Shown here: positions 6,469 through 53,695 of the stretch, in pieces
How the letters are laid out: every line of letters starts with the position of its first letter
How positions within the stretch are numbered: position 1 is the stretch's first letter
Virus record (IMG/VR): IMGVR_UViG_3300042554_002438
From: a virus
Taxonomy: Duplodnaviria; Heunggongvirae; Uroviricota; Caudoviricetes
DNA length: 64,000 nt
Strand: one strand, 5' to 3'
Translations under genes and position numbers: made by a program
The notes under the pieces: generated by a model
What the model was told of the DNA's origin: nothing
The model's input: only the letters and a program-made list of their open reading frames with translations
Databases searched by the model: none

Positions 6469-7920
6469 TTAAATTTTAATCTTTATGTTTTCGATAATTA
6501 AATCACCAGTGTGAATACCGTTATGTTTATAAATTTCAACATGGTATCTGTTAGATGAGTTGACCTCAAATTCAAATTGCATTGTTGGTCTACCGTCAGC
6601 GTTGAGTGTTCTACAACAACCCTTTTCACAAGACTCACCAGGCATTTTATGATCGGCTCCGAAGAAAGACATATAACCCGCGAAGCTCTCAACCATATTC
6701 GGGTGTGCTGTTGTTAATTTATTTCGATTAACGTAAACCTCATAGACACCTTTAGGTATCTTCGTGAATGAAACGGTTAATACTAATTTAACTCTATTTG
6801 GCGCACCTAGCTGGCCACTTGTTGGCGTAACCTGTGTGACAGCATCTGTGATTTGACCATTAATTGGTATGCTGAAATTATTGCTATGTAAAACATTGTT
6901 GTATGCTCTAGCCATCATCGGTTGATCAGCTTTTTCATATACCTCAACATCATCATAATCATAATCAAGTTTGTATATTATCTTTATCACATCTTCCATT
7001 GTATAGGTAACTTTCTTACCATTCTCATCGAAGAAAACATAAGACCAGTCAGCTGATTTTAACATCTCCAATGTAACTTTCTCCCCATTCGGAGAATTAG
7101 TCCATTGCTGCCATAGTCTATCAATGTTTGAGTGATGTGTCCAGAAAACTGGATCAAACCCAGCTGTCGGAACCCAACCCATCAACCCTGTCTCACTAAT
7201 TTTACCAGTGATTGGGTTGTTGAACAACTTACCAGTTTGTACATTACCAGCGCCGATGTAATCGTGCATCGCACCATGTGGGGCATTGTTAATCTGCGAG
7301 TTAAACATTTCGTATGAGGTGTAACTCATTAATTTATCTGTCTCCAAAGCTCTTTGGATTTCACCTGCAATAGGATAACCATAGTTCAAGCTATCAAATC
7401 TACAACGTTCATATAGGGATGATTTCGGATCTCTGAATTTTTCTTGTAAAAATTTGTCGTAGTCAAAATTATTTGTGTAGCCCCAATAAGGTAATGCGAA
7501 ATCTTTATATCCAGACAATTTTCTAACTATCTTTTCTAAATGGTGAATGTATAATCTATGCCAAACCAAGAAATGAATTTTTTCTTTACCACTTGGTGTA
7601 TGTGTACAATTATCCCAAGCTTCTTTTAAATCGGCTGGGGTCTTATAGCTTGGGCACAGTGGGTTATATAAGATTGTGTCGGGAACCCAATGAATTGCAC
7701 CTTGATAATACCAACTCAATGGGTTATCACAAGGCATATTACGCATAATTTTAAAGGCTTTGTCCATGGCTTCAACGTCCATTTGTGCCTCTGGTGTGTG
7801 AATTTCTTTTCGGAGATATCGTTTTCCAACAACATCTCCAACGCTTTCGGTTCTGTCTTTACATGATATTAGCCATAATAGGCCAAACATCAAAATGAAT
7901 AGTATTAATATTTTTTTCAT
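6469..7920 (-). CDS. tyrosinase (type-3 copper oxidase), secreted/lipoprotein
   Basis: CuA signature HFLVWHRLYIHHLE and CuB signature DPVFWTHHSNIDRLW; N-terminal signal peptide ending LISC. Confidence 0.75.
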   Translation of the reverse strand: MKKILILFILMFGLLWLISCKDRTESVGDVVGKRYLRKEIHTPEAQMDVEAMDKAFKIMRNMPCDNPLSWYYQGAIHWVPDTILYNPLCPSYKTPADLKEAWDNCTHTPSGKEKIHFLVWHRLYIHHLEKIVRKLSGYKDFALPYWGYTNNFDYDKFLQEKFRDPKSSLYERCRFDSLNYGYPIAGEIQRALETDKLMSYTSYEMFNSQINNAPHGAMHDYIGAGNVQTGKLFNNPITGKISETGLMGWVPTAGFDPVFWTHHSNIDRLWQQWTNSPNGEKVTLEMLKSADWSYVFFDENGKKVTYTMEDVIKIIYKLDYDYDDVEVYEKADQPMMARAYNNVLHSNNFSIPINGQITDAVTQVTPTSGQLGAPNRVKLVLTVSFTKIPKGVYEVYVNRNKLTTAHPNMVESFAGYMSFFGADHKMPGESCEKGCCRTLNADGRPTMQFEFEVNSSNRYHVEIYKHNGIHTGDLIIENIKIKI

Positions 7921-18825: not shown

Positions 18826-19347
18826 TTAAAATTTAATTCTAAGACCCATTTTTTGCATAGCCAATAATGCCTCGGCGTTACCCATAGCATCATCAACGGG
18901 ATTGTGAGTATGTTTTGTTTTTCTATACAAACGTTTCCACTCCTGGTTCTTACTAGCATCCTTAACCAAACCACAATACAAATCACCGATACGTCTGCCA
19001 GAAAACCCGAATGGGTTTCTACCGCAGTACTTATGCATGTACCAGTTAATCCACTGCCAATCAAAGGCTAAGTTATCGCTGATAAAGGTTGGTTTACCTT
19101 CGGAATTTTTAACTAACCATTTTTCGAACTCGCTCATAACCTCATATGGTTCCCCAAACTGTTCATGCTCAGACCTTGAAAACCCACTGACAGCTAACGC
19201 ATCTGGTTTGTATTGATCAGTTAATGGTCTGATCTTACCATAAAACGTTTTTGATGTGTCGGACACTTTAACAACACCGAAACATACAATTGAATGTGTA
19301 CCAACTAATTCACCATCAGCCTCAACATCCACTACAAAATAACTCAT
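18826..19347 (-). CDS. DEDDh 3'-5' exonuclease (DnaQ-like)
   Basis: VVDVEADGE Exo I motif and HNPVDDAMGNAE Exo III motif. Confidence 0.55.
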   Translation of the reverse strand: MSYFVVDVEADGELVGTHSIVCFGVVKVSDTSKTFYGKIRPLTDQYKPDALAVSGFSRSEHEQFGEPYEVMSEFEKWLVKNSEGKPTFISDNLAFDWQWINWYMHKYCGRNPFGFSGRRIGDLYCGLVKDASKNQEWKRLYRKTKHTHNPVDDAMGNAEALLAMQKMGLRIKF

Positions 19348-19778
19348 ATCTTTACTAATTTTTTAATTTCTCTGTCAATATCGCGCTTTTTAATTGTCTC
19401 GCGTTTATCGTAATTCTTTTTACCCCTAGCAATAGCGATTCTACATTTTATCTTACCAGAACCATTCAAGTAAAACCAAAACGGAACGATTGTTAAACCT
19501 TTTGTCAAACTGTTCTGAATCTTTCGGATTTCTGTTCTGTGTAAAAGTAATTTTTTATCACGATTCTCATCATGACCAAAAAATTCGCTATTTGTGGTTA
19601 TTTTAAAATTTTTGATGAACATTTCGTCATCCTTGATATAGCAAAACGCATCAACTATGCTAATTTTACCATCCTTAATTGCTTTAACTTCAGAGCCAAA
19701 AAGAATAATACCAGCCTCATACTCTTGAAGGTATTCATAATCAAATTTTGCTTTTCTATTTGTAACTAAAGTTTTCAC
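19344..19778 (-). CDS. smpB: SsrA-binding protein SmpB
   Basis: NRKAKFDYEYLQEYEAGIILFGSEVKAIKDGKISIVDAF...KLLLHRTEIRK...IARGKKNYDKRETIKKRD collinear with E. coli SmpB. Confidence 0.85.
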   Translation of the reverse strand: MKTLVTNRKAKFDYEYLQEYEAGIILFGSEVKAIKDGKISIVDAFCYIKDDEMFIKNFKITTNSEFFGHDENRDKKLLLHRTEIRKIQNSLTKGLTIVPFWFYLNGSGKIKCRIAIARGKKNYDKRETIKKRDIDREIKKLVKI

Positions 19779-22529: not shown

Positions 22530-23138
22530 TTATATTAGATGTTTCAATATTTTTTCTTTAATACCAGATTGTTTTATACCCTCGAAATCTCTAGGCGTCC
22601 AGACAAAATTTTCTAAACCCCAATCGCGATCAAATGGGCCATATGAACTATTCTCAACATGTATACCCATGTGTAAATCATCAACAGCGACCCAATGAGT
22701 AACTTCTGGATGATCTCTTAACCAACGAAGGATTTCAAAATGTCTTTCTTGCTCCCTATCAGAGGTTCGAGTCCACGGAAAATCGTTATGGTCAGGGACA
22801 AACCCTTCCTCTAACCAATTTGTAAAATGAAACACCTCTGTTCCATCAATTGGTCTTTTAATAATACCTTTAGATTCATAGTAGTCACCTAATTCTTCAA
22901 TTGTCGCGTGTAATCGCCAATCGGAACTAACAACAATTTCAGCGCCAGTTTCTTCAAGTATTTCATTGAGCACTTTAACAGCTTTATCGTCAAAATTATC
23001 GAACCTATATTCAACAGGAATCTCTTTCGAGGTCATGGACAACTTTCTACCACCCCACTTTTCTTGTTTTTTGTATCGACTACCCCAATTGTTTGACAAA
23101 CAAATGACCCCGTCATTATCTAAAAATATAACTTTCAT
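22530..23138 (-). CDS. HAD-superfamily phosphatase (paralog 1)
   Basis: MKVIFLDNDGVI motif I (DxDGV) and VVSSDWR motif II. Confidence 0.55.
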   Translation of the reverse strand: MKVIFLDNDGVICLSNNWGSRYKKQEKWGGRKLSMTSKEIPVEYRFDNFDDKAVKVLNEILEETGAEIVVSSDWRLHATIEELGDYYESKGIIKRPIDGTEVFHFTNWLEEGFVPDHNDFPWTRTSDREQERHFEILRWLRDHPEVTHWVAVDDLHMGIHVENSSYGPFDRDWGLENFVWTPRDFEGIKQSGIKEKILKHLI

Positions 23139-23139
23139 C

Positions 23140-23712
23140 TTAATAATTTAAATCAATGATATCTTTTTCCAACATTGCTTTTGCAATTTCATAGTAATGT
23201 TGGTTAAACCCATCTTTATTTCTTGGTGATGGTAATACATGCACAAAATGATTACGTTGCCCGTAAAGCATATCAGAATCATCATCTATGATGATATAGT
23301 TTTCAACACCAGACTTATCCATGTACTCTTGCTGTACAACTTCATCCCAATTAATATGGTGGAATTGTAGATCGTTATTTAGGTAATACTCTATCTCCAT
23401 TCCTCGCGGAATTGAATAACCTTTGGCTCTCATACTAGGCGTGATGCCAATGATTTTACCTGCCATCTCTTCCATCTCCCAAACCTTTCTCATAAAGTCT
23501 ATACCACCGTGTCTCCAGGTTGAACTAACGACAATTTCGGCGCCAGTTTCAAGAATTAATTTGTTCATTAACTCTTTACTCCAAGAGCAAAATGTTTGAT
23601 AATGATCTTTGCGGCCATCTTCCCAAACCCATTCTTTGTATTGACACTCACCACTTCGATAAGCATTCTCGCAGTTCAACACACCGTCTATGTCAAGGAA
23701 TATTACTTTCAT
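23140..23712 (-). CDS. HAD-superfamily phosphatase (paralog 2)
   Basis: MKVIFLDIDGVL and VVSSTWR; tandem paralog of the preceding gene. Confidence 0.55.
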   Translation of the reverse strand: MKVIFLDIDGVLNCENAYRSGECQYKEWVWEDGRKDHYQTFCSWSKELMNKLILETGAEIVVSSTWRHGGIDFMRKVWEMEEMAGKIIGITPSMRAKGYSIPRGMEIEYYLNNDLQFHHINWDEVVQQEYMDKSGVENYIIIDDDSDMLYGQRNHFVHVLPSPRNKDGFNQHYYEIAKAMLEKDIIDLNY

Positions 23713-26916: not shown

Positions 26917-27513
26917 TTAAATTATTTGATCGATAACACCATTTTTCAAAGCTTCTTCTGCCGAAAAATACCAATCTTTTTTAAGATTTTTGATTTGGTC
27001 AAGTTGTTTCTGTTTCAGACGAGTACAATCAATTAAATGTGCGTCATAAACCATCATAATCCTTTTGGTTTCTTCAAGATTTTCCTTCAATATACTAAGT
27101 TTATCGTATGGCATTTGATCCAAACACTCATGATACATGTATGTCGATAACTTGTGTCCGTATCTTTTATCCCCAGATACTAATACAAGTAGAGCCATCG
27201 ACATAGCAGAACCAAAACAATAAGTATAGACCTCGGTATTCGAACTCTCTATTGCCGCGATTAAAGCAAAGCCATCATATACCGATCCCCCAAAGCTATT
27301 CACAATCAATTTTATTGGCTTACGTTCATAATCAACCAAATTCTCTTGGTTCTCGTCATCATACTCATTAATCTCAGCAATATATTGGATTATATCGCCT
27401 ACGGAAGATTCATCTATCTCGCTACTTAGTGTGATCGTCCTTGATGGATTTTCCCTATCAAAAGAAAAATACCTATTCTTCTTTTTGTTCTGGTTTTTTA
27501 ATTTCATATTCAT
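26917..27513 (-). CDS. ClpP-family serine protease
   Basis: LIVNSFGGSVYDG...CFGSAMSMAL...YMYHE aligns to the ClpP Ser/His catalytic region (INSPGGSV...GQAASMG...MIHQP). Confidence 0.65.
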   Translation of the reverse strand: MNMKLKNQNKKKNRYFSFDRENPSRTITLSSEIDESSVGDIIQYIAEINEYDDENQENLVDYERKPIKLIVNSFGGSVYDGFALIAAIESSNTEVYTYCFGSAMSMALLVLVSGDKRYGHKLSTYMYHECLDQMPYDKLSILKENLEETKRIMMVYDAHLIDCTRLKQKQLDQIKNLKKDWYFSAEEALKNGVIDQII

Positions 27514-27811
27514 ATGTCAACCATGGTTTTTTTTGTTGGGTGTTTAGTGCCTCAACTATCTTATTATAATTTTCTTCATAAAATCTTTCACCGTCTTCCG
27601 AATTTGCCCAAAATAGAAATCCTGGTTCAGTCTGCGTCCTCCCCAGGATTTCTTTTGTTGCTCTTCTATCTTTTTTAAGAAATGAAATACTAACATAGTT
27701 CAGTATAAACTTCCCATCAGTCTTTGACCAATACGCCAGTTGGCCAAATTTTTGTTTGTTCTTTACTCTGGCATTTTCAATAATCTCTATTAAAAATTTA
27801 ACATTTCCCAT
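27473..27811 (-). CDS. hypothetical protein
   Basis: 112 aa ORF. Confidence 0.4.
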   Translation of the reverse strand: MGNVKFLIEIIENARVKNKQKFGQLAYWSKTDGKFILNYVSISFLKKDRRATKEILGRTQTEPGFLFWANSEDGERFYEENYNKIVEALNTQQKKPWLTYEYEIKKPEQKEE

Positions 27812-29193
27812 TAACTAGATTCTTCCATATCAACCACACCCGAGTCTTTAACTATACCCTCAAGAACCTTAAACTCAAAAGATTTGTGTTTGTAAATTCT
27901 AGGTACCAGACCAGATTCTAATCTGACACATACACCCTCACGGATATGGGTATCATCGAGCATTGATTTACCTTTAGAATAAATATCAACAAGTTCAGTA
28001 ATCTTGTCATTAAAATCCCTATCACCGTTTATACTTGGATAGGTTAATTCCATTTCAATTCTTCTGAAACGTGTTATCTCTGGAACATGTTTTACACCTA
28101 TCTCATTACATCTTTTAACAACATCATCCCAAGTGTAATCAACTGATTGGCCATCTGGGTTGGTCATTGTCATACGGTACACATAAAAGTCTTGTTGGGC
28201 TGTCGAACAACCATATGAGTAAACCATGTGCTTTTTATCGCCCATGTTGGAATACTGTTTCGTGAATTCCTTATCACCCATTTTACTTGTATCAACAGAT
28301 GGCATGATTGGCGTATTCTCATTCTCATAACCAACAATCTCAAGATAAACAGTCTCACCTTTTCTTAGATTACCTTTGAAAAGAGCGAAAGCTTTATCTC
28401 TTATGGTTGGATCATGGAATTGGGTTGCATTTGATTTAGCCTCCTCCAAAACAACTCTGCGTGTACCAGTTAAATAAGCCCATTCAGTCTCGTTTATCTT
28501 GATACCAAGCTTAATCAATAATCTTTCAAACCAATTTAAATCACGGTCAACCAACACATGCCCAACTCTATGAGAAGTTCCGTGTAGTTTTTCTGTGATG
28601 ACAACCAAATCCTCACGATTTATTTGATGTACATTCTTACCAAAATGTTCGGTATCAATATGTTCCTTGAACATAACCGAAGTTTTTGCCACTCTGGTTT
28701 TTTTACCTTGGTTTTGTTGAGCGGCTTTTATTGTGTTCGGGTTGATGTACTTATTACAAATTGGTACACCACCCCATTCATCAATCTCAAGACCCTCATC
28801 AACCAGACCAGTCACATAAATGAAACCAAAACTGTGTAATGGTGTCCAGAAACCATCTGAGATTTCCCCACGAAATCTCTGGGCCCTAACCCTACGGTTA
28901 TCATCAAACATACCAGCTTTATCATCTGGGAATTTGTTCTTTGTTTTATCTCGATATAAGTTATTCGCATGGCAAAACTCATGAGATAACTGACCATCAC
29001 ATGGGAAGTATACCCCCCAATGATCTTCTTTGCAATCTAAACCAACCACCACTTGATTACCGTGGCATGTCGCTAATTGCACCTTATCCGCATTAGGATG
29101 CGGTCTAACGTTTTTAAGTTTTGTTACTATTCCTTTATACATATTTTTTACTTTGATTCTACCATTACGTAAGTACCCTCTACCATACCCCAT
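27811..29193 (-). CDS. ATP-dependent RNA ligase (Rnl2/Rnl5-like) with an N-terminal OB/tRNA-binding-like domain
   Basis: nucleotidyltransferase motif I ITEKLHGTSHRV (KxHGxx, as in T4 Rnl2 EKIHGTN); N-terminal ...RPHPNADKVQLATC... resembles tRNA-binding OB folds. Confidence 0.6.
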   Translation of the reverse strand: MGYGRGYLRNGRIKVKNMYKGIVTKLKNVRPHPNADKVQLATCHGNQVVVGLDCKEDHWGVYFPCDGQLSHEFCHANNLYRDKTKNKFPDDKAGMFDDNRRVRAQRFRGEISDGFWTPLHSFGFIYVTGLVDEGLEIDEWGGVPICNKYINPNTIKAAQQNQGKKTRVAKTSVMFKEHIDTEHFGKNVHQINREDLVVITEKLHGTSHRVGHVLVDRDLNWFERLLIKLGIKINETEWAYLTGTRRVVLEEAKSNATQFHDPTIRDKAFALFKGNLRKGETVYLEIVGYENENTPIMPSVDTSKMGDKEFTKQYSNMGDKKHMVYSYGCSTAQQDFYVYRMTMTNPDGQSVDYTWDDVVKRCNEIGVKHVPEITRFRRIEMELTYPSINGDRDFNDKITELVDIYSKGKSMLDDTHIREGVCVRLESGLVPRIYKHKSFEFKVLEGIVKDSGVVDMEESS

Positions 29194-33858: not shown

Positions 33859-34369
33859 AAAAAGTTAAAATTATATCCTTAACGGTATCATCGTTTGTGT
33901 GTGTCCTGGCCGTTAATAACTTATACTTCTCAAAAAATGGGTCGTACTCTGATGAAAAATATTGATATTTATTCAACTCGTCTATATTTTTCGCAAAATA
34001 TTCATTGACCATAATTCTTTCACTTGATGTGGTCTGCATAAGCATTATGTAAACCAAGAAACCATCATCAGTTGTTAAAAAAACAACGTTATTTTTAAAA
34101 TTGATTGATATGAAATTTAAAAAATCGTCATTAATCATACCCGAATATTTGAATGGGCATAATTTATACAGAACACCCATCTGGCCAATCAATATCGGTT
34201 GTATTTCTTGATTAAAAGAATTGGTGATAAATATATTATCACCATTTTCTTCAAGGATTTTTGCAAAAAAAATATCCTTGAACACATTCTTATTTAAGTC
34301 AATATAATACTTTATGATTTTGTTAAAAGCCTCATCAAAAAATTTTGGATCTTTCATTTTAACCATCAA
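33854..34369 (-). CDS. hypothetical protein
   Basis: 171 aa ORF. Confidence 0.45.
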   Translation of the reverse strand: MMVKMKDPKFFDEAFNKIIKYYIDLNKNVFKDIFFAKILEENGDNIFITNSFNQEIQPILIGQMGVLYKLCPFKYSGMINDDFLNFISINFKNNVVFLTTDDGFLVYIMLMQTTSSERIMVNEYFAKNIDELNKYQYFSSEYDPFFEKYKLLTARTHTNDDTVKDIILTFS

Positions 34370-35460
34370 CTTATCGCATATATTCTTTTTCTAAAACGAA
34401 TTAACAAGTCGTCAACAAATTTTCTATCAACAGAATTAGGTAGATCTGATTTTGCGTAAAGGTCATCCAAAAGTGTGATTTTTGATTCCGCTTCGGCAAG
34501 AAGATCCTCATATTCAGCATCACCATTTCTTATTTTAAGTAATTCCTCAGCATCTGGTCTTTTGACGATCACTTGTTTAAGTTCGGCAATCTCGGTTGCC
34601 ATACGTATCAACCTAATACAGTGCATCATATTTTTTGAATCATAACCCTTACCATGTTCTTGGTTTGTGTTATATCGATCGTCATTACGCTTTTCAACCC
34701 AATCCCAGTATTCCTTATAATCTTTACAGTAAGAAGTATAACCATCCTTGTTATAGATAATTGTCGCAACTGGCTTTTCGCCAAATGGAATGGAACTTAA
34801 TCTAACCTCATTCGATGTGTCATCATCATTGACGATGCCACGATAACCGAGCCTAGAATTTTCTTTACTGGCGTAATGATCATAAAACATGGCGTATACA
34901 TCTCTGGCATGTGGTACATTAACCAAACCACATTTGTTCTGTACATAACCACTATTGTCCAAAAATGCTTTGAGTGGGATCGATTTATAACCATCGACAA
35001 CATAGCAAAAATCCAATATAGATTTGCGCTCTTTGTCAACTGGGTTTACAATTTTTTTGTTTAACCCGCGAGCTTTTTTAATTTGTGCGACAGCGTACCC
35101 ACCAAATGAATCGCGGCAAACTTTACTGATGAACTTATCCTTATGTTGTAGAATCATATCAAACATTGGGTGTTTGTAAAGTATATTCTCTTCGGGCATA
35201 TTGAATAACTCAATTATGTTTGGGTTTTGCGATTGTAATAATTGCAAGAACCTACCAATCTCATAGTAGACAGCATCATTTGTGGCATCCGAAACTTGTT
35301 CAATATAGTCATATCCCAGTACGTTATCAAGCGGTAAGTAGTAAACTCCACGATAATCGGTATCGGATGTTGGTTTGTGTGTACCATACGCCCTTGATCC
35401 AGATATTGTTTCAAACAATAAAAGTCCATTCGTTCTTAAATAATCTATCGTTAATCGCAT
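34366..35460 (-). CDS. Pol-beta-superfamily nucleotidyltransferase (RlaP-like; RNA-repair associated)
   Basis: GSRAYGTHKPTSDTDYRGV = GS...[DE]x[DE] nucleotidyltransferase motif with a helical C-terminal domain. Confidence 0.5.
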   Translation of the reverse strand: MRLTIDYLRTNGLLLFETISGSRAYGTHKPTSDTDYRGVYYLPLDNVLGYDYIEQVSDATNDAVYYEIGRFLQLLQSQNPNIIELFNMPEENILYKHPMFDMILQHKDKFISKVCRDSFGGYAVAQIKKARGLNKKIVNPVDKERKSILDFCYVVDGYKSIPLKAFLDNSGYVQNKCGLVNVPHARDVYAMFYDHYASKENSRLGYRGIVNDDDTSNEVRLSSIPFGEKPVATIIYNKDGYTSYCKDYKEYWDWVEKRNDDRYNTNQEHGKGYDSKNMMHCIRLIRMATEIAELKQVIVKRPDAEELLKIRNGDAEYEDLLAEAESKITLLDDLYAKSDLPNSVDRKFVDDLLIRFRKRIYAIS

Positions 35461-38521: not shown

Positions 38522-40606
38522 ATGGCACAAAAAGTATCATATACAGGGGTTTTCTTGGACAAGGATTCAAGAGCCGTATTAGAAAAAGAGTTCAAATCGC
38601 AGGTTCCTGATGGATGGGAGTGGATTGCGCATCATATGACCATAACTTTAGGGGAAATGGTTGATAAATCGGAATTGGGTAAACAAGTTGCCCTTAATAT
38701 AGTTTCATTTGGTAAAGATGATAAAGTCATGGCAATTGGTGTCAAGGGTTACCCTAGTAAAAATGAAAAACCGCACATTACTTTAGCCGTTAATCGCGCT
38801 GAGGGTGGTAAACCTTATATGAGTAATTTAATTAAGGAATGGGTACCATACTCGATCGGTGCCATATTAACTGGTGTTGTCAGTGAATACCCGCCACAAT
38901 CTAAAGAAACACTTAATGAAGCTTATGATATTAAATCATTACCGTTCTATAACGATGTTATCAATAAAAACGGTAAAATATATCAGGTTGGTGGGGCTGT
39001 TAGAGATTTGTATCTGGGTAAACAATCTAAAGACCTTGACATCGTTATTAGTGGAATACCAGCTAAGGAACTCGAAGATGTGTTGAAAAAATATGGTAAA
39101 GTTGATATGGTTGGTGCGTCATTTGGTGTTATTAAGTTCACACCACCAGATGGTGAAGAAATTGATATTGCAATACCAAGAACTGAAAAGAAGAGTGGTG
39201 TTGGTTATCAGGGTTTTGATGTGTCGGCTGATCACACTCTCCCTATCGAAAAGGATCTTGAGAGAAGAGATTTCACAATAAATTCAATCGCTAAAGATAG
39301 TGATGGGAATGTTATTGATCCATTCGGTGGGTTAAAGGATCTTGATTCGAAGGTTATCAAATTAACAAACCCTAAGGCTTTTTCAGATGACCCATTAAGG
39401 ATGTTAAGGGCGATTCAATTTGCGTCTAGGTTTGGTTTTAAAATAGATGAGGAAACGTTTGATGCTATTAAAAAGAATGCGATGACTATTGACGAAATAT
39501 CAAAAGAGAGAATATTGATAGAGTTTGATAAAATCGTAAACAAAGGTAATCCCAGAGTCGGAGCTGAGTTATTAGTTTCAAGTGGATTGTACAGGGGCAT
39601 ATTCGGTACCGAGTTTGATGGTGATTTTGAACCGTTTGACCAAGTAACTAGGAACAGTGAGTTCGCTTACTGGTTGATCCAATCGTTCACCGAACAACCA
39701 GACCAATACTATAAGAATATAATGAAAGGTGACATCGATACGGCTAGAGAGATATCAGCTTTGGCTTATATGTATAACAACTTACCTGGTAACGACAAAG
39801 CAAAACAAAGATTTGTTTATTTTAATATAAATAAGATATCACCACAGATGTTTAATAGTAATTTCGTGAGAAGTATATTGAGTGATGTTATCAATGACTT
39901 TGATTCTCAAAAATACCCAGCTGGTTATTCGGATTTAAAAGTCAATGGTAATGATTTAATGGCAATGGGTTTAAAAGGTAAAGCTGTTGGTGATATGTTA
40001 AATAAATTAATCTCTGCAATATATTCTGATAAAATTGAAAATACAAAGAATGGTTTGTTGGGTTTTGTTGAGAGGAATAAGGATATGTTAAATGAATCTG
40101 TTGGTGGTACAAATAAGAATAGAGTTGTGTTTTATGATTTTGATGGTACTTTAATGGATAGTCCACTTCCTGACACAGGTAAACAAATCTATAAAGAAAA
40201 AACTGGTAATGTATACCCACATCAAGGTTGGTGGGGTCGTGCTGAGAGTTTGGATTTAAATGTCTTCGACATAAAAACAAATCCAGATGTTGAGGCTAAA
40301 TTTAGAGCTGACTCATCGGATCCAAATACGCATGTTGTTTTATTAACCAATAGGTTGTCAAAACTTGAGGAACCAATTAAAAAAGTTCTTGACAAACATA
40401 ATATGGTATTCGATTTTTATTCTTTTAAAAATGATGGTCGTGAAAAGGGTGAACGTGTTTTGGATATTTTAGCCAAAGTATATCCGAATACGAATGAAAT
40501 TGAATTTTATGATGACGATGAGCGACACATTCAAAATGTAAGAGATAATTTAATCGACACCGATTACGATTTCAAGGTGAATCAAGTTATTGATGGTAGA
40601 TTATAA
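38522..40606 (+). CDS. tri-domain RNA end-healing enzyme: 2H phosphoesterase, CCA-adding nucleotidyltransferase (class II) and HAD 3'-phosphatase
   Basis: N-terminal HHMTIT and PHITLA = two H-x-T/S-x motifs of 2H/LigT CPDases; middle GGAVRDLYLG...DLDIV...RRDFTIN...DPFGGLKDL...DPLRMLRAIQFA = CCA-adding/poly(A) polymerase head domain; C-terminal VVFYDFDGTLMD (DxDGT), LLTNR and YDDDERH = HAD phosphatase motifs as in the T4 Pnkp C-domain. Confidence 0.8.
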   Translation: MAQKVSYTGVFLDKDSRAVLEKEFKSQVPDGWEWIAHHMTITLGEMVDKSELGKQVALNIVSFGKDDKVMAIGVKGYPSKNEKPHITLAVNRAEGGKPYMSNLIKEWVPYSIGAILTGVVSEYPPQSKETLNEAYDIKSLPFYNDVINKNGKIYQVGGAVRDLYLGKQSKDLDIVISGIPAKELEDVLKKYGKVDMVGASFGVIKFTPPDGEEIDIAIPRTEKKSGVGYQGFDVSADHTLPIEKDLERRDFTINSIAKDSDGNVIDPFGGLKDLDSKVIKLTNPKAFSDDPLRMLRAIQFASRFGFKIDEETFDAIKKNAMTIDEISKERILIEFDKIVNKGNPRVGAELLVSSGLYRGIFGTEFDGDFEPFDQVTRNSEFAYWLIQSFTEQPDQYYKNIMKGDIDTAREISALAYMYNNLPGNDKAKQRFVYFNINKISPQMFNSNFVRSILSDVINDFDSQKYPAGYSDLKVNGNDLMAMGLKGKAVGDMLNKLISAIYSDKIENTKNGLLGFVERNKDMLNESVGGTNKNRVVFYDFDGTLMDSPLPDTGKQIYKEKTGNVYPHQGWWGRAESLDLNVFDIKTNPDVEAKFRADSSDPNTHVVLLTNRLSKLEEPIKKVLDKHNMVFDFYSFKNDGREKGERVLDILAKVYPNTNEIEFYDDDERHIQNVRDNLIDTDYDFKVNQVIDGRL

Positions 40607-43682: not shown

Positions 43683-44525
43683 CTACCTGTTGGTGGGGAT
43701 TAAGTTATTTAAATATTCTCTATTTTGAGTAAAGATTGGTGTTTCGACATCCAATTCCCAAGCGCTTCTGGTGTAAACATCCTTTGGATCAATCACAACC
43801 GTATCACGATTGACTTCCGCATTGGCACTTTTACGAACAAACGTCTTTTCAATTTTTCTGATTATACCACCACGTTTTTCTCTTGGTGAGTAATCATTCC
43901 AATTTGTACCAGCCTGAAATATCAATTCTTGCATACCATCGGTCTTAACCCCATGTAATTGTTTTGGTGAGTATAAACTCTGAGCGACCGATGAAATTGA
44001 ATTTCTGGTCGCATCTTGTTGTCTCCAGATGAAATAATTCTCAACCTCAACTTTTTGTGGGATTTGAAATACCCTGGCATCAAACATAGCCAATTTAGGT
44101 TCGCTGGCGTATCTTTTATCCGTCACAGACTTTCTCTCGATAACATGTAGATTCTTAATATAACGATCCATTCTCAATTTATTAAAGATGGCTGTTGCCA
44201 TTGAGGCTGAAACGCTCGCCATTTTCTGTAAGTTATTATCGAACCAAGCTTGTGTGCCCTCATCTTCAAAATCGGTGATCAAAATTGAAATCTCATCTGA
44301 TTGCACATACGCAAACTTAGCACCCATAATGTTTTTACATAGATATGCCGCTGTCTCATCCATATCATCAATCAAATCCAAATCAAATGGCCTTCTCAAA
44401 CCTTTTGTATAGGTGTGAAAAGCCTTACCATCAATTCTGATAATGGTGTAACCTCTTCTTGGTAATGAAATACGAGTTCTATCCTCATAGTTCGATTTCA
44501 TTCTGTCTCCTAATGCGTCTTTCAT
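43683..44525 (-). CDS. Thg1-like protein (tRNA-His guanylyltransferase / 3'-5' nucleotidyltransferase family)
   Basis: RIDGKAFH, YVQSDEISIL (conserved QSDE catalytic motif) and FIWRQQD collinear with Thg1 (RLDGRNFH, YGQSDEYSF, LSWRQAD). Confidence 0.75.
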   Translation of the reverse strand: MKDALGDRMKSNYEDRTRISLPRRGYTIIRIDGKAFHTYTKGLRRPFDLDLIDDMDETAAYLCKNIMGAKFAYVQSDEISILITDFEDEGTQAWFDNNLQKMASVSASMATAIFNKLRMDRYIKNLHVIERKSVTDKRYASEPKLAMFDARVFQIPQKVEVENYFIWRQQDATRNSISSVAQSLYSPKQLHGVKTDGMQELIFQAGTNWNDYSPREKRGGIIRKIEKTFVRKSANAEVNRDTVVIDPKDVYTRSAWELDVETPIFTQNREYLNNLIPTNR

Positions 44526-52794: not shown

Positions 52795-53247
52795 CTATTT
52801 TAGGGCCTCAAATTCCATTTCTTCTGGAGTTAATAAACCCTTATTATATTTCTGAACTCGATCGAAATACCTTTGTTTTACTTTACTAGATATTGGTATC
52901 GGGTTACCTTCTTCGTCAATTCTAACAAATTTAATATTTGTGTATGTCACAATTTCTTGTGTGCCCGTGTGAACATTGTGTTTTCTAACTTCAATATATA
53001 GGGATAACGATGTTTTACCAAACTCTAAAACTTTACCATAAATTTTAAGCAAATTATTAACCTTAACTGGTTTTTTAAAAACCAGTTGATCAATCATAAT
53101 AGTAACAACTCTTGGGGTATCACAAATCTGAGCGGCGTAAGCTGCTGATGCGTCATCTATTAATGACACCAAAGTACCCCCGAACATATTATCATGGACT
53201 CCAATGTCGCCTTTTTTACAGATATACGTTGTGATTAATTCCATGCG
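52795..53247 (-). CDS. hotdog-fold acyl-CoA thioesterase
   Basis: MELITTYICKKGDIGVHDNMFGGTLVSLIDDASAAYAA; start reassigned to the second Met because the longer ORF (to 53373) would run through the terminator and the tmRNA 3' end. Confidence 0.55.
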   Translation of the reverse strand, partial: RMELITTYICKKGDIGVHDNMFGGTLVSLIDDASAAYAAQICDTPRVVTIMIDQLVFKKPVKVNNLLKIYGKVLEFGKTSLSLYIEVRKHNVHTGTQEIVTYTNIKFVRIDEEGNPIPISSKVKQRYFDRVQKYNKGLLTPEEMEFEALK

Positions 53248-53280: not shown

Positions 53281-53310
53281 AAAAAAAGGGTAAAATATTT
53301 TACCCTTTTT
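53281..53310 (-). terminator. rho-independent terminator (bidirectional hairpin)
   Basis: A7-gggtaaaatattttaccc-T5. Confidence 0.6.
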
Positions 53311-53319
53311 AAATTTCTG

Positions 53320-53695
53320 TGGAGTCGGAGGGATTCGAACCCTCGTCTCGTTTAGCCATTCAATAATTCTCATTCACATGCTTAGTTCATTTTTCTAAAC
53401 AAACAAAATATTTGTCTTCACTAACCCAGAAGTTCAATAAAACTGGAATACCTTTTTTGGAGTTCCCACCTCCCACCTGGCATCTAAGGGTTTTTGCAGT
53501 TTTAACTGACAGTTGTTGGCTTACGCCAATTCGTAGTCTGCAAACTCAACTGGCTGACCGTTCAACACGATGTTGCCTTCAGCGTCAATGTAGCTTTCGC
53601 CATCTGAAATTGTGTATAGGTTATTTAAGTGTTTCCGATACTAACACCACATGCAAATTAAAGAACGAATCTACCGATCGATTCCAGTCGACCCC
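53320..53695 (-). ncRNA. ssrA: candidate tmRNA (ssrA)
   Basis: 376-nt RNA with a tRNA-Ala-like tRNA-like domain: 5' GGGGTCG pairs with 3' CGACTCC (G3-U70 wobble, A73); GAGGG-TTCGAAT-CCCTC T-arm; 5' GGGGTCGACTGGAATCGATCGG resembles the tmRNA consensus GGGGCUGAUUCUGGAUUCGACGGG; internal frame ...GCA GAC TAC GAA TTG GCG TAA; SmpB is encoded at 19344..19778. Confidence 0.55.

Follow-up and report, generated by a model that had tools for sequence, protein, structure and literature searches.

A tmRNA gene with an atypical tag ending, and a partner smpB gene, in a phage genome

On the minus strand of a 64,000-nt stretch of phage DNA, the whole of which is referred to here as the window, lies a 376-nt element with tRNA-like ends. 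A first-pass annotation had read this element as a tmRNA with an alanine-type tRNA-like domain, an unconventional tag ending and a SmpB partner encoded in the same window. This raises the question of whether the element is a tmRNA gene that can function in the rescue of stalled ribosomes, and of whether its tag ending is genuine and alters the fate of tagged proteins. The gene and the parts of its tRNA-like domain are located as follows.

53320..53695, minus strand: one-piece tmRNA (ssrA) gene, RNA nt 1-376, ending at the discriminator A; identified by Rfam RF00023, relaxed ARAGORN and homologues
53689..53695, minus strand: acceptor stem, 5′ strand GGGGTCG (nt 1-7), which holds G3; from sequence and alignments
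53320..53327, minus strand: acceptor stem, 3′ strand CGACTCC (nt 369-375), and discriminator A376; from sequence and alignments
53328..53344, minus strand: T-arm GAGGG / TTCGAAT / CCCTC (nt 352-368); from the Rfam alignment

Every feature that had been described for the alanine-type tRNA-like domain is present, as is the 5′ end, GGGGTCGACTGGAATCGATCGG, which reads from position 53695 downwards. The 3′ part of the RNA is GACGAGGGTTCGAATCCCTCCGACTCCA; its last base, at 53320, is the discriminator A (A73). CCA is not encoded in the gene, since CAG stands directly after the discriminator. The match to the covariance model RF00023, a check that the first-pass annotation had proposed, spans 53317..53695 on the minus strand and is full-length (model positions 1-374 of 374). 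It scores 78.8 bits (E = 6e-29) against a gathering score of 47 and is far above chance level. No other Rfam family outside the tRNAs reaches threshold anywhere in the 64-kb window. The ARAGORN program, also proposed as a check, bears out the element in part: at a relaxed threshold it gives ends identical to those of the RF00023-based gene and proposes a different tag, whereas with default settings it makes no call at 53320..53695.

Viral homologues of the window tmRNA comprise four close and more than 12 distant sequences. The viral tmRNA family was gathered by two pattern scans of IMG/VR together with Rfam searches, and it shares the pseudoknot PK1 and helix 2 with the window. The close relatives were reached via homologues of the thioesterase gene that adjoins the tmRNA. 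They are the following.

L048: tmRNA 91% identical to that of the window; tag identical to the window's, ending ...YELA
L046: tmRNA 89% identical to that of the window; tag ending ...LELA
L047: tmRNA 85% identical to that of the window; tag ending ...LELA
L049: tmRNA 83% identical to that of the window; tag ending ...LEVA

Among deposited phages, a megablast search with the tmRNA locus matched the neighbouring tRNA-Leu and nothing else, and a more sensitive blastn search with the tmRNA gave no match. A metagenome scan with the PK1 pattern found the same phage with one SNP and nothing else, and the tmRNA sequence is identical or one SNP apart in samples from many metagenomes. No tmRNA adjoins P0139, P0145 or P0165, which are more remote homologues of the thioesterase; one of the three stands in a bacterial context. 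Two further loci, L075 and L076, were rejected as tmRNA relatives; they are bacterial cysN-thioesterase loci.

The wider viral tmRNA family (L001-L034) has long acidic tags of 16-34 residues and is found within tRNA arrays. Permuted (two-piece) tmRNAs (RF04321) are present in five of the 16 contigs that share the 24-nt 3′ end of the window tmRNA. Default ARAGORN misses eight of the 22 one-piece viral tmRNAs collected. ARAGORN is the tool of published phage tmRNA surveys (PMC7162821; PMC9004378), and the frequencies given in such surveys are therefore probably underestimated. One of these surveys reports tmRNA genes in 402 of 18,146 phage genomes (Buchholz et al., PMC9004378).

The interior of the element was analysed with two alignments: A1, of 12 viral tmRNA sequences, and a five-sequence alignment of the clade formed by the window and L046-L049. 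The helices and pseudoknot regions are the following.

53650..53677, minus strand: helix 2, 5′ strand (about nt 19-46); from RNAalifold
53347..53380, minus strand: helix 2, 3′ strand (about nt 316-349), partner of 53650..53677; from RNAalifold
53614..53648, minus strand: PK1, stem a nt 48-53 with 63-68, stem b nt 55-61 with 76-82; from the 12-sequence count
53510..53552, minus strand: helix 5, CAGUUG (nt 144-149) with CAACUG (181-186) and UUGGC (167-171) with GCCAA (176-180); from clade covariation
53396..53496, minus strand: region corresponding to PK2-PK4 (nt 200-300), with helices present; from clade covariation

With A1, RNAalifold shows compensatory changes in the acceptor stem, helix 2, the T-arm, one PK1 stem and the last hairpin. 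The alanine identity pair G3-U70 is invariant in all 12 family members and all five clade members. Pairs 4, 5, 6 and 7 of the acceptor stem have compensatory changes, as do three stem pairs of the T-arm across the family. Helix 2, which replaces the anticodon arm, has many RNAalifold pairs that are changed on both sides, and this is found in both alignments. When the two PK1 stems are written explicitly for the 12 sequences, 87.7% of cells are paired, compared with at most 56.5% when partners are slid. Six PK1 pairs are changed on both sides, and none of 500 shuffles reached the covariation score. The pseudoknot and resume codon that the first-pass annotation had suggested looking for are thus both found, PK1 conserved and covarying, and the resume codon, GGC, aligned with those of relatives at a spacing of 12 nt from PK1.

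Helix 5 has three compensatory pairs in the five-sequence alignment (columns 148/188, 170/183 and 172/181). The end of the tag is embedded in this helix as UUGGC-GUAA-GCCAA, with the stop codon in the GUAA loop. Single-sequence folding of the region does not recover the covariation-supported helix and does no better than with shuffled sequence (z = -0.45); the case for helix 5 is thus entirely comparative. The PK2-PK4 region shows two nested helices, nt 213-217/244-248 and nt 223-226/234-237, with one compensatory pair each. The posterior probability of the Rfam alignment is low there, and a search for pseudoknot partners among the five sequences established none, yielding mostly G/U-rich spurious stacks. 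In E. coli, PK2-PK4 are replaceable or dispensable (PMC2481249). The sole polymorphism among copies of the window phage tmRNA from different samples also falls in this region: A225G (position 53471), seen in L040, L042 and L043, changes a hairpin A-U pair to G-U, and full compensation to G-C (A225G with U235C) is seen in the more distant L048.

The tag reading frame and the nucleotide that would set its register are as follows.

53521..53601, minus strand: tag frame, resume codon GGC (53601..53599), 26 codons GESYIDAEGNIVLNGQPVEFADYELA, stop TAA (53523..53521); from register match and conservation
53605..53605, minus strand: A91, which corresponds to E. coli A86 and precedes the resume codon by four nt; from alignment and the E. 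coli rule

The frame closes with GCA GAC TAC GAA TTG GCG TAA. The ending ...F-A-D-Y-E-L-A-stop is therefore present just as first described, and the frame is conserved in four relatives. GGC occupies RNA nt 95-97 and in A1 sits in the resume-codon column, where relatives have GAC, GCA or GCT. Upstream of it the window has CAGAU/GGC and relatives have UAAAU/GGC or UAAAU/GAC. In E. coli, A86 at position -4 sets the frame, and the substitution U85C is tolerated (PMC2481249); at position -5 the window has C, in contrast to the U found in E. coli and in relatives. For L046 and L047, which have UAAAU upstream, this frame is also the one that ARAGORN calls with default settings.

All four close relatives (L046-L049) keep the 26-codon frame. 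Within the clade the tag has synonymous changes, namely TAC/TAT, TTG/TTA and GAC/GAT; its other changes are conservative, with N replaced by S or A, Q by K, P by S, D by E, Y by L and L by V. Variable sites number two of 39 in the first 13 tag codons, as against 92 of 299 outside the tag (Fisher p = 4e-4), and at the protein level the first half of the tag is invariant in the clade. A degenerate pattern for this invariant half had no match in 185,579 representative bacterial genomes. A sister group with DEKSTFTFEDAMSFV... tags has 8, 6 and 19 variable sites by codon position, and this third-position excess is as expected for coding sequence.

The tmRNA reading thus has the support of the covariance-model match, of covariation in PK1, helix 2 and helix 5, and of the conservation of the tag frame. 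The analyses support the conclusion that the sequence at 53320..53695 on the minus strand represents a genuine one-piece tmRNA.

The protein partner of tmRNA is also encoded in the window.

19344..19778, minus strand: smpB, 144 aa, the tmRNA protein partner; from TIGR00086 and PF01668

The SmpB homologue, which had been paired with the tmRNA from the outset, proves to be complete. It scores 166.4 bits with TIGR00086, over profile positions 2-144 of 144 and above the equivalog cutoff of 119.1 bits, and 162.8 bits with PF01668. It aligns to solved structures (residues 14-158 of the 161-residue PDB chain 7ljp_A). The C-terminal tail, which is needed on the ribosome, is intact, and the alignment runs through ...ARGKKNYDKRETIKKRDIDREIKKLVK. 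The distance from smpB to the tmRNA gene is 33.5 kb. SmpB homologues are encoded in 68 of 50,697 deposited phage records; the best of these are 44-48% identical and come from phages of 635-735 kb and from Prevotella Lak phages. The longest contigs for thioesterase homologues and for SmpB homologues have the same sizes, 178,852 and 310,519 bp, which suggests that relatives carry both genes.

The tag ending of the five clade members is E-[L/V]-A (YELA, LELA or LEVA) and not Ala-Ala. In the wider viral family the endings are AVAA, AIAA, ALAA, LLAA, LVAA or AYAA, plus one AVSA. Since five members share E-[L/V]-A against the near-uniform A-x-A-A of the wider family, the departure is real, conserved and specific to the clade. 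The non-canonical ending noticed at first is thus a clade trait and not an error. Its unusualness is limited, however, because all five tags still end in a hydrophobic residue, Leu or Val, followed by a terminal Ala. Natural tmRNA tags normally end in a hydrophobic residue (tmRNA Website authors, PMC4131195). In a random-tag screen in E. coli, a terminal Ala-Ala was found in 91% of the strongest degrons and is critical for strong ClpXP degrons, and E. coli ClpXP degrades a tag with LVA at its end roughly as efficiently as YALAA (PMC10862746). Judged from its sequence, a tag that lacks Ala-Ala may differ in proteolytic targeting or target weakly.

It may be asked whether the clade-specific tag is a re-targeted signal, that is, a 27-residue acidic tag that routes proteins to a protease or adaptor other than the one that reads the host tag. 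The candidate routes would be a protease built on a phage ClpP homologue, Lon, as in Mycoplasma, or a sparing from degradation. The first of these routes involves the following gene.

26917..27513, minus strand: ClpP-family protein, 198 aa; PF00574, 82.4 bits

In alignment with Bacillus subtilis ClpP, Ser, His and Asp of this protein fall on the catalytic triad. The gene adjoins that for an RNA ligase and is located away from the structural genes. Its presence speaks for re-targeting, as do the invariant first half of the tag, the six acidic and no basic residues of the tag, and the conservation in five sequences of an ending that departs from the A-x-A-A of sister viral tmRNAs. The shortness of the native Bacteroides tag, GETNYALAA, and the need for Ala-Ala in strong E. 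coli ClpXP degrons can be added. Nevertheless re-targeting appears unlikely. The ending retains a hydrophobic residue and Ala, as natural tags usually do, E. coli ClpXP handles LVA about like YALAA, and long tags occur throughout the viral family, in members ending in Ala-Ala as well. In addition, nothing ties the ClpP gene to the tag. A more elaborate proposal is that the phage has its own 27-residue signal, with the invariant N-terminal half as a binding handle and a modified C-terminus. Stalled products might then meet a different fate than in host trans-translation, either through a phage-ClpP-based protease or through protection from host ClpXP. Such a scheme is distinctly doubtful. If it were true, the tag would act during infection largely on host proteins translated from messages that the phage has cleaved. 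The initial idea of an altered degron should be toned down, because the hydrophobic-plus-Ala ending is kept and because pairs of phage tmRNA and SmpB have already been published (PMC7162821).

Is the tmRNA perhaps a non-functional passenger, a decaying copy captured from the host or another phage? Its Rfam score is the lowest but three among related viral tmRNAs, default ARAGORN misses it, and its tag ending is atypical. Decay is nonetheless highly improbable. Compensatory changes keep the helices paired, no part of the RNA is better conserved than the tag frame, which all five diverged sequences have intact, and an intact smpB is retained in the same genome. Identical or one-SNP tmRNAs moreover recur in many metagenomes. 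On these grounds the pseudogene reading is rejected.

The tag proposed by relaxed ARAGORN lies further downstream, at RNA nt 215-262 (ARWEVGTPKKVFQFY-stop), and it would give the C-terminal peptide ...KVFQFY, as opposed to AGESYIDAEGNIVLNGQPVEFADYELA from the 26-codon frame. It is preceded by UAGAU/GCC, which resembles the E. coli upstream sequence UAGUC/GCA. However, the program's own label for this frame is 'Tag not identified', and the frame lies within the PK2-PK4 region, about 130 nt past PK1. The L048 version of it differs at seven amino acids and has lost the stop, and the L048 substitutions preserve base pairs instead, e.g., A225G with U235C. As it is pairing and not the frame that is conserved, the downstream tag is rejected, and the chance that it is the real one is extremely small. 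That the element is a tRNA-Ala gene split by a self-splicing intron, for which the tRNA-like ends are the sole point, is almost certainly wrong and is rejected: the whole window gives no match to an intron family that reaches the gathering threshold, the element lacks an anticodon arm, and its interior, in which PK1 covaries and the tag frame is conserved, fits the tmRNA model. For the tmRNA reading, then, the model match is present, the pseudoknot is conserved and no intron is found, and none of the objections anticipated in the first-pass annotation holds.

The tmRNA gene and its neighbours can be placed in the context of the phage genome.

53726..53810, minus strand: tRNA-Leu(UAA), 30 nt upstream of the tmRNA and on the same strand
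53283..53310, minus strand: intrinsic terminator (12-bp stem, then T-run), 9 nt past the tmRNA
52795..53244, minus strand: thioesterase (4HBT) gene, directly downstream of the tmRNA
38522..40606, plus strand: CCA-adding enzyme fused to a HAD_SAK_1 domain; PF01743, PF12627, PF10307 and phrog_2244

The arrangement of tRNA-Leu and tmRNA is conserved in L046, L047 and L048, and the two genes are probably co-transcribed. Relatives have a hairpin and T-run at the site of the window terminator, with different stem sequences. In the program-made list of open reading frames the thioesterase gene reaches 53373, within the tmRNA; the ATG at 53244 is most likely its true start. Most of the phage tRNA genes are without an encoded CCA, and the phage CCA-adding enzyme is a candidate source of the 3′ CCA for both the tmRNA and the tRNAs.

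The phage-borne nature of the genome, as first proposed, is borne out by several observations. The window has 27 tRNA genes, all on the minus strand, a lysin gene (PG_binding_1 and GH19), two genes for tail-collar (Collar) proteins, and PHROG matches that include RNA ligase and NAMPT. The 298,717-bp metagenomic contig Ga0453895_0000002 / JBFDKG010002685.1 encodes proteins identical to those of the window, and such proteins recur in dozens of further samples. Capsid and terminase genes are absent from the window, and the phage assignment therefore depends on accessory and lysis genes. The thioesterase is 61-81% identical to Bacteroidota genes located downstream of cysN, and one such Bacteroidota cysN-thioesterase contig also encodes a Por_Secre_tail protein. 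This similarity points to recent gene transfer and gives a clue to the host, which, from this single neighbouring gene, is probably a freshwater Bacteroidota bacterium. The gene content, the 298,717-bp contig and the thioesterase similarity together suggest a jumbo phage of freshwater Bacteroidota.

The locus has the anatomy of a tmRNA gene, conserved helices, a conserved tag frame, an intact SmpB and a phage context. It very probably constitutes a functional trans-translation module on a jumbo phage of ∼300 kb, the host of which is probably a freshwater Bacteroidota bacterium. By analogy with the established tmRNA pathway, the steps of expression, processing, charging and tagging, and the fate of tagged proteins, may be envisaged as follows. 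Transcription would run through tRNA-Leu and then, as the last gene of the unit, the tmRNA, and would stop at the terminator at 53283..53310; the precursor would be trimmed in the manner of a tRNA. CCA would be added post-transcriptionally, either by a host enzyme or by the phage CCA-adding enzyme, and the acceptor stem with its G3-U70 pair would be charged with alanine by the host AlaRS. Phage SmpB would bind the tRNA-like domain, and the complex would enter stalled ribosomes. Translation would then resume at GGC, four nt after A91, and append A-GESYIDAEGNIVLNGQPVEFADYELA; termination at the UAA in the helix 5 loop would release the ribosome. The likely benefit is that ribosomes stay recycled while infection yields many truncated mRNAs, and this would fit the presence of 27 tRNAs and of RNA-repair genes nearby.

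In several respects the phage gene resembles bacterial one-piece tmRNA (RF00023). It shares a tRNA-Ala-like domain with G3-U70, a long helix 2, a SmpB partner, PK1 about 12 nt before the resume codon, an A at position -4 and a stop codon in the helix 5 loop. It differs from bacterial tmRNA in being carried by a phage, in not encoding CCA, and in having a strongly acidic tag that ends in E-L-A as opposed to A-A. With 26 codons against nine in the native Bacteroides GETNYALAA, the phage tag also differs from the latter in charge and ending.

tmRNAs and SmpB have been reported in huge phages (Al-Shayeb et al., 2020; PMC7162821), and the combination of phage tmRNA and SmpB is therefore of a known kind. 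The huge phages and the Prevotella Lak megaphages are similar to the present phage in exceeding 200 kb and in having large tRNA sets and translation genes, tmRNA and SmpB among them, and the Lak phages likewise infect a Bacteroidota host. In contrast, the SmpB of the window is just 44-48% identical to the best phage homologues on deposit, and no deposited phage tmRNA is similar at the DNA level. The lineage of the window phage is known from metagenome contigs alone. The viral tmRNAs of IMG/VR (e.g., L005, L014, L029 and L031) have in common with it PK1, helix 2, the register of resume and stop codons, long acidic tags and a location in tRNA arrays, but the E-[L/V]-A ending and an unrelated tag body set the window's clade apart. 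Hudson et al. (PMC4131195) list ssrA in mycobacteriophages of cluster C (Bxz1-like) and in Bacillus phage G. These are also complete ssrA genes in lytic phage genomes, although the host phyla are different, there is no sequence relationship, and the listing concerns ssrA only.

A tag without Ala-Ala has a parallel outside the phages. Gur and Sauer reportedly found in 2008 that the long ssrA tags of Mycoplasma and Mesoplasma are recognised by Lon. Those tags are similar in having about 27 residues, no Ala-Ala, and a hydrophobic residue followed by Ala at the end. There is no sequence similarity, and both the likeness and Lon as a possible protease are to be taken as analogy only.

What is new here is the lineage itself and the 26-codon tag ending in E-[L/V]-A that a small phage clade conserves. 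The phage adds a well-supported case in which both halves of the ribosome-rescue system are present. The tag of this small clade has left the near-universal Ala-Ala ending and yet stays under selection, and for this reason it offers a natural variant with which to probe the proteases that read such tags, in Bacteroidota and in phage infection.

Several other features of these genomes were observed. In L047, an insert of about 770 bp (L047:1639-2430) is found directly after the discriminator base of the tmRNA. It contains one reverse-strand open reading frame of 225 aa, which has no Pfam match above threshold. After the insert comes a 22-nt copy of the tmRNA 3′ end. The insert looks like a small mobile element that targets the 3′ end of phage ssrA, by analogy with bacterial genomic islands.

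The window also has an unusually complete set of genes for RNA repair and tRNA maturation, which stand among the 27 tRNA genes (22530..23712, 27811..29193, 34366..35460, 38522..40606 on the plus strand, and 43683..44525). The set consists of two HAD_SAK_2 proteins, an RNA ligase, RlaP, the CCA-adding enzyme/HAD_SAK_1 fusion and a Thg1-like tRNA-His guanylyltransferase. At 6469..7920 on the minus strand is encoded a 483-aa protein that combines a central tyrosinase domain (PF00264, 94.5 bits) with a polyphenol-oxidase middle domain and matches no PHROG; for a phage this is an unusual auxiliary gene. Lastly, a tRNA-Ile gene with the anticodon UAU is located at 57285..57359 on the minus strand, alongside another tRNA-Ile gene (GAU) and three genes of the tRNA-Met type (CAU). 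The phage appears to supply its own AUA decoding.
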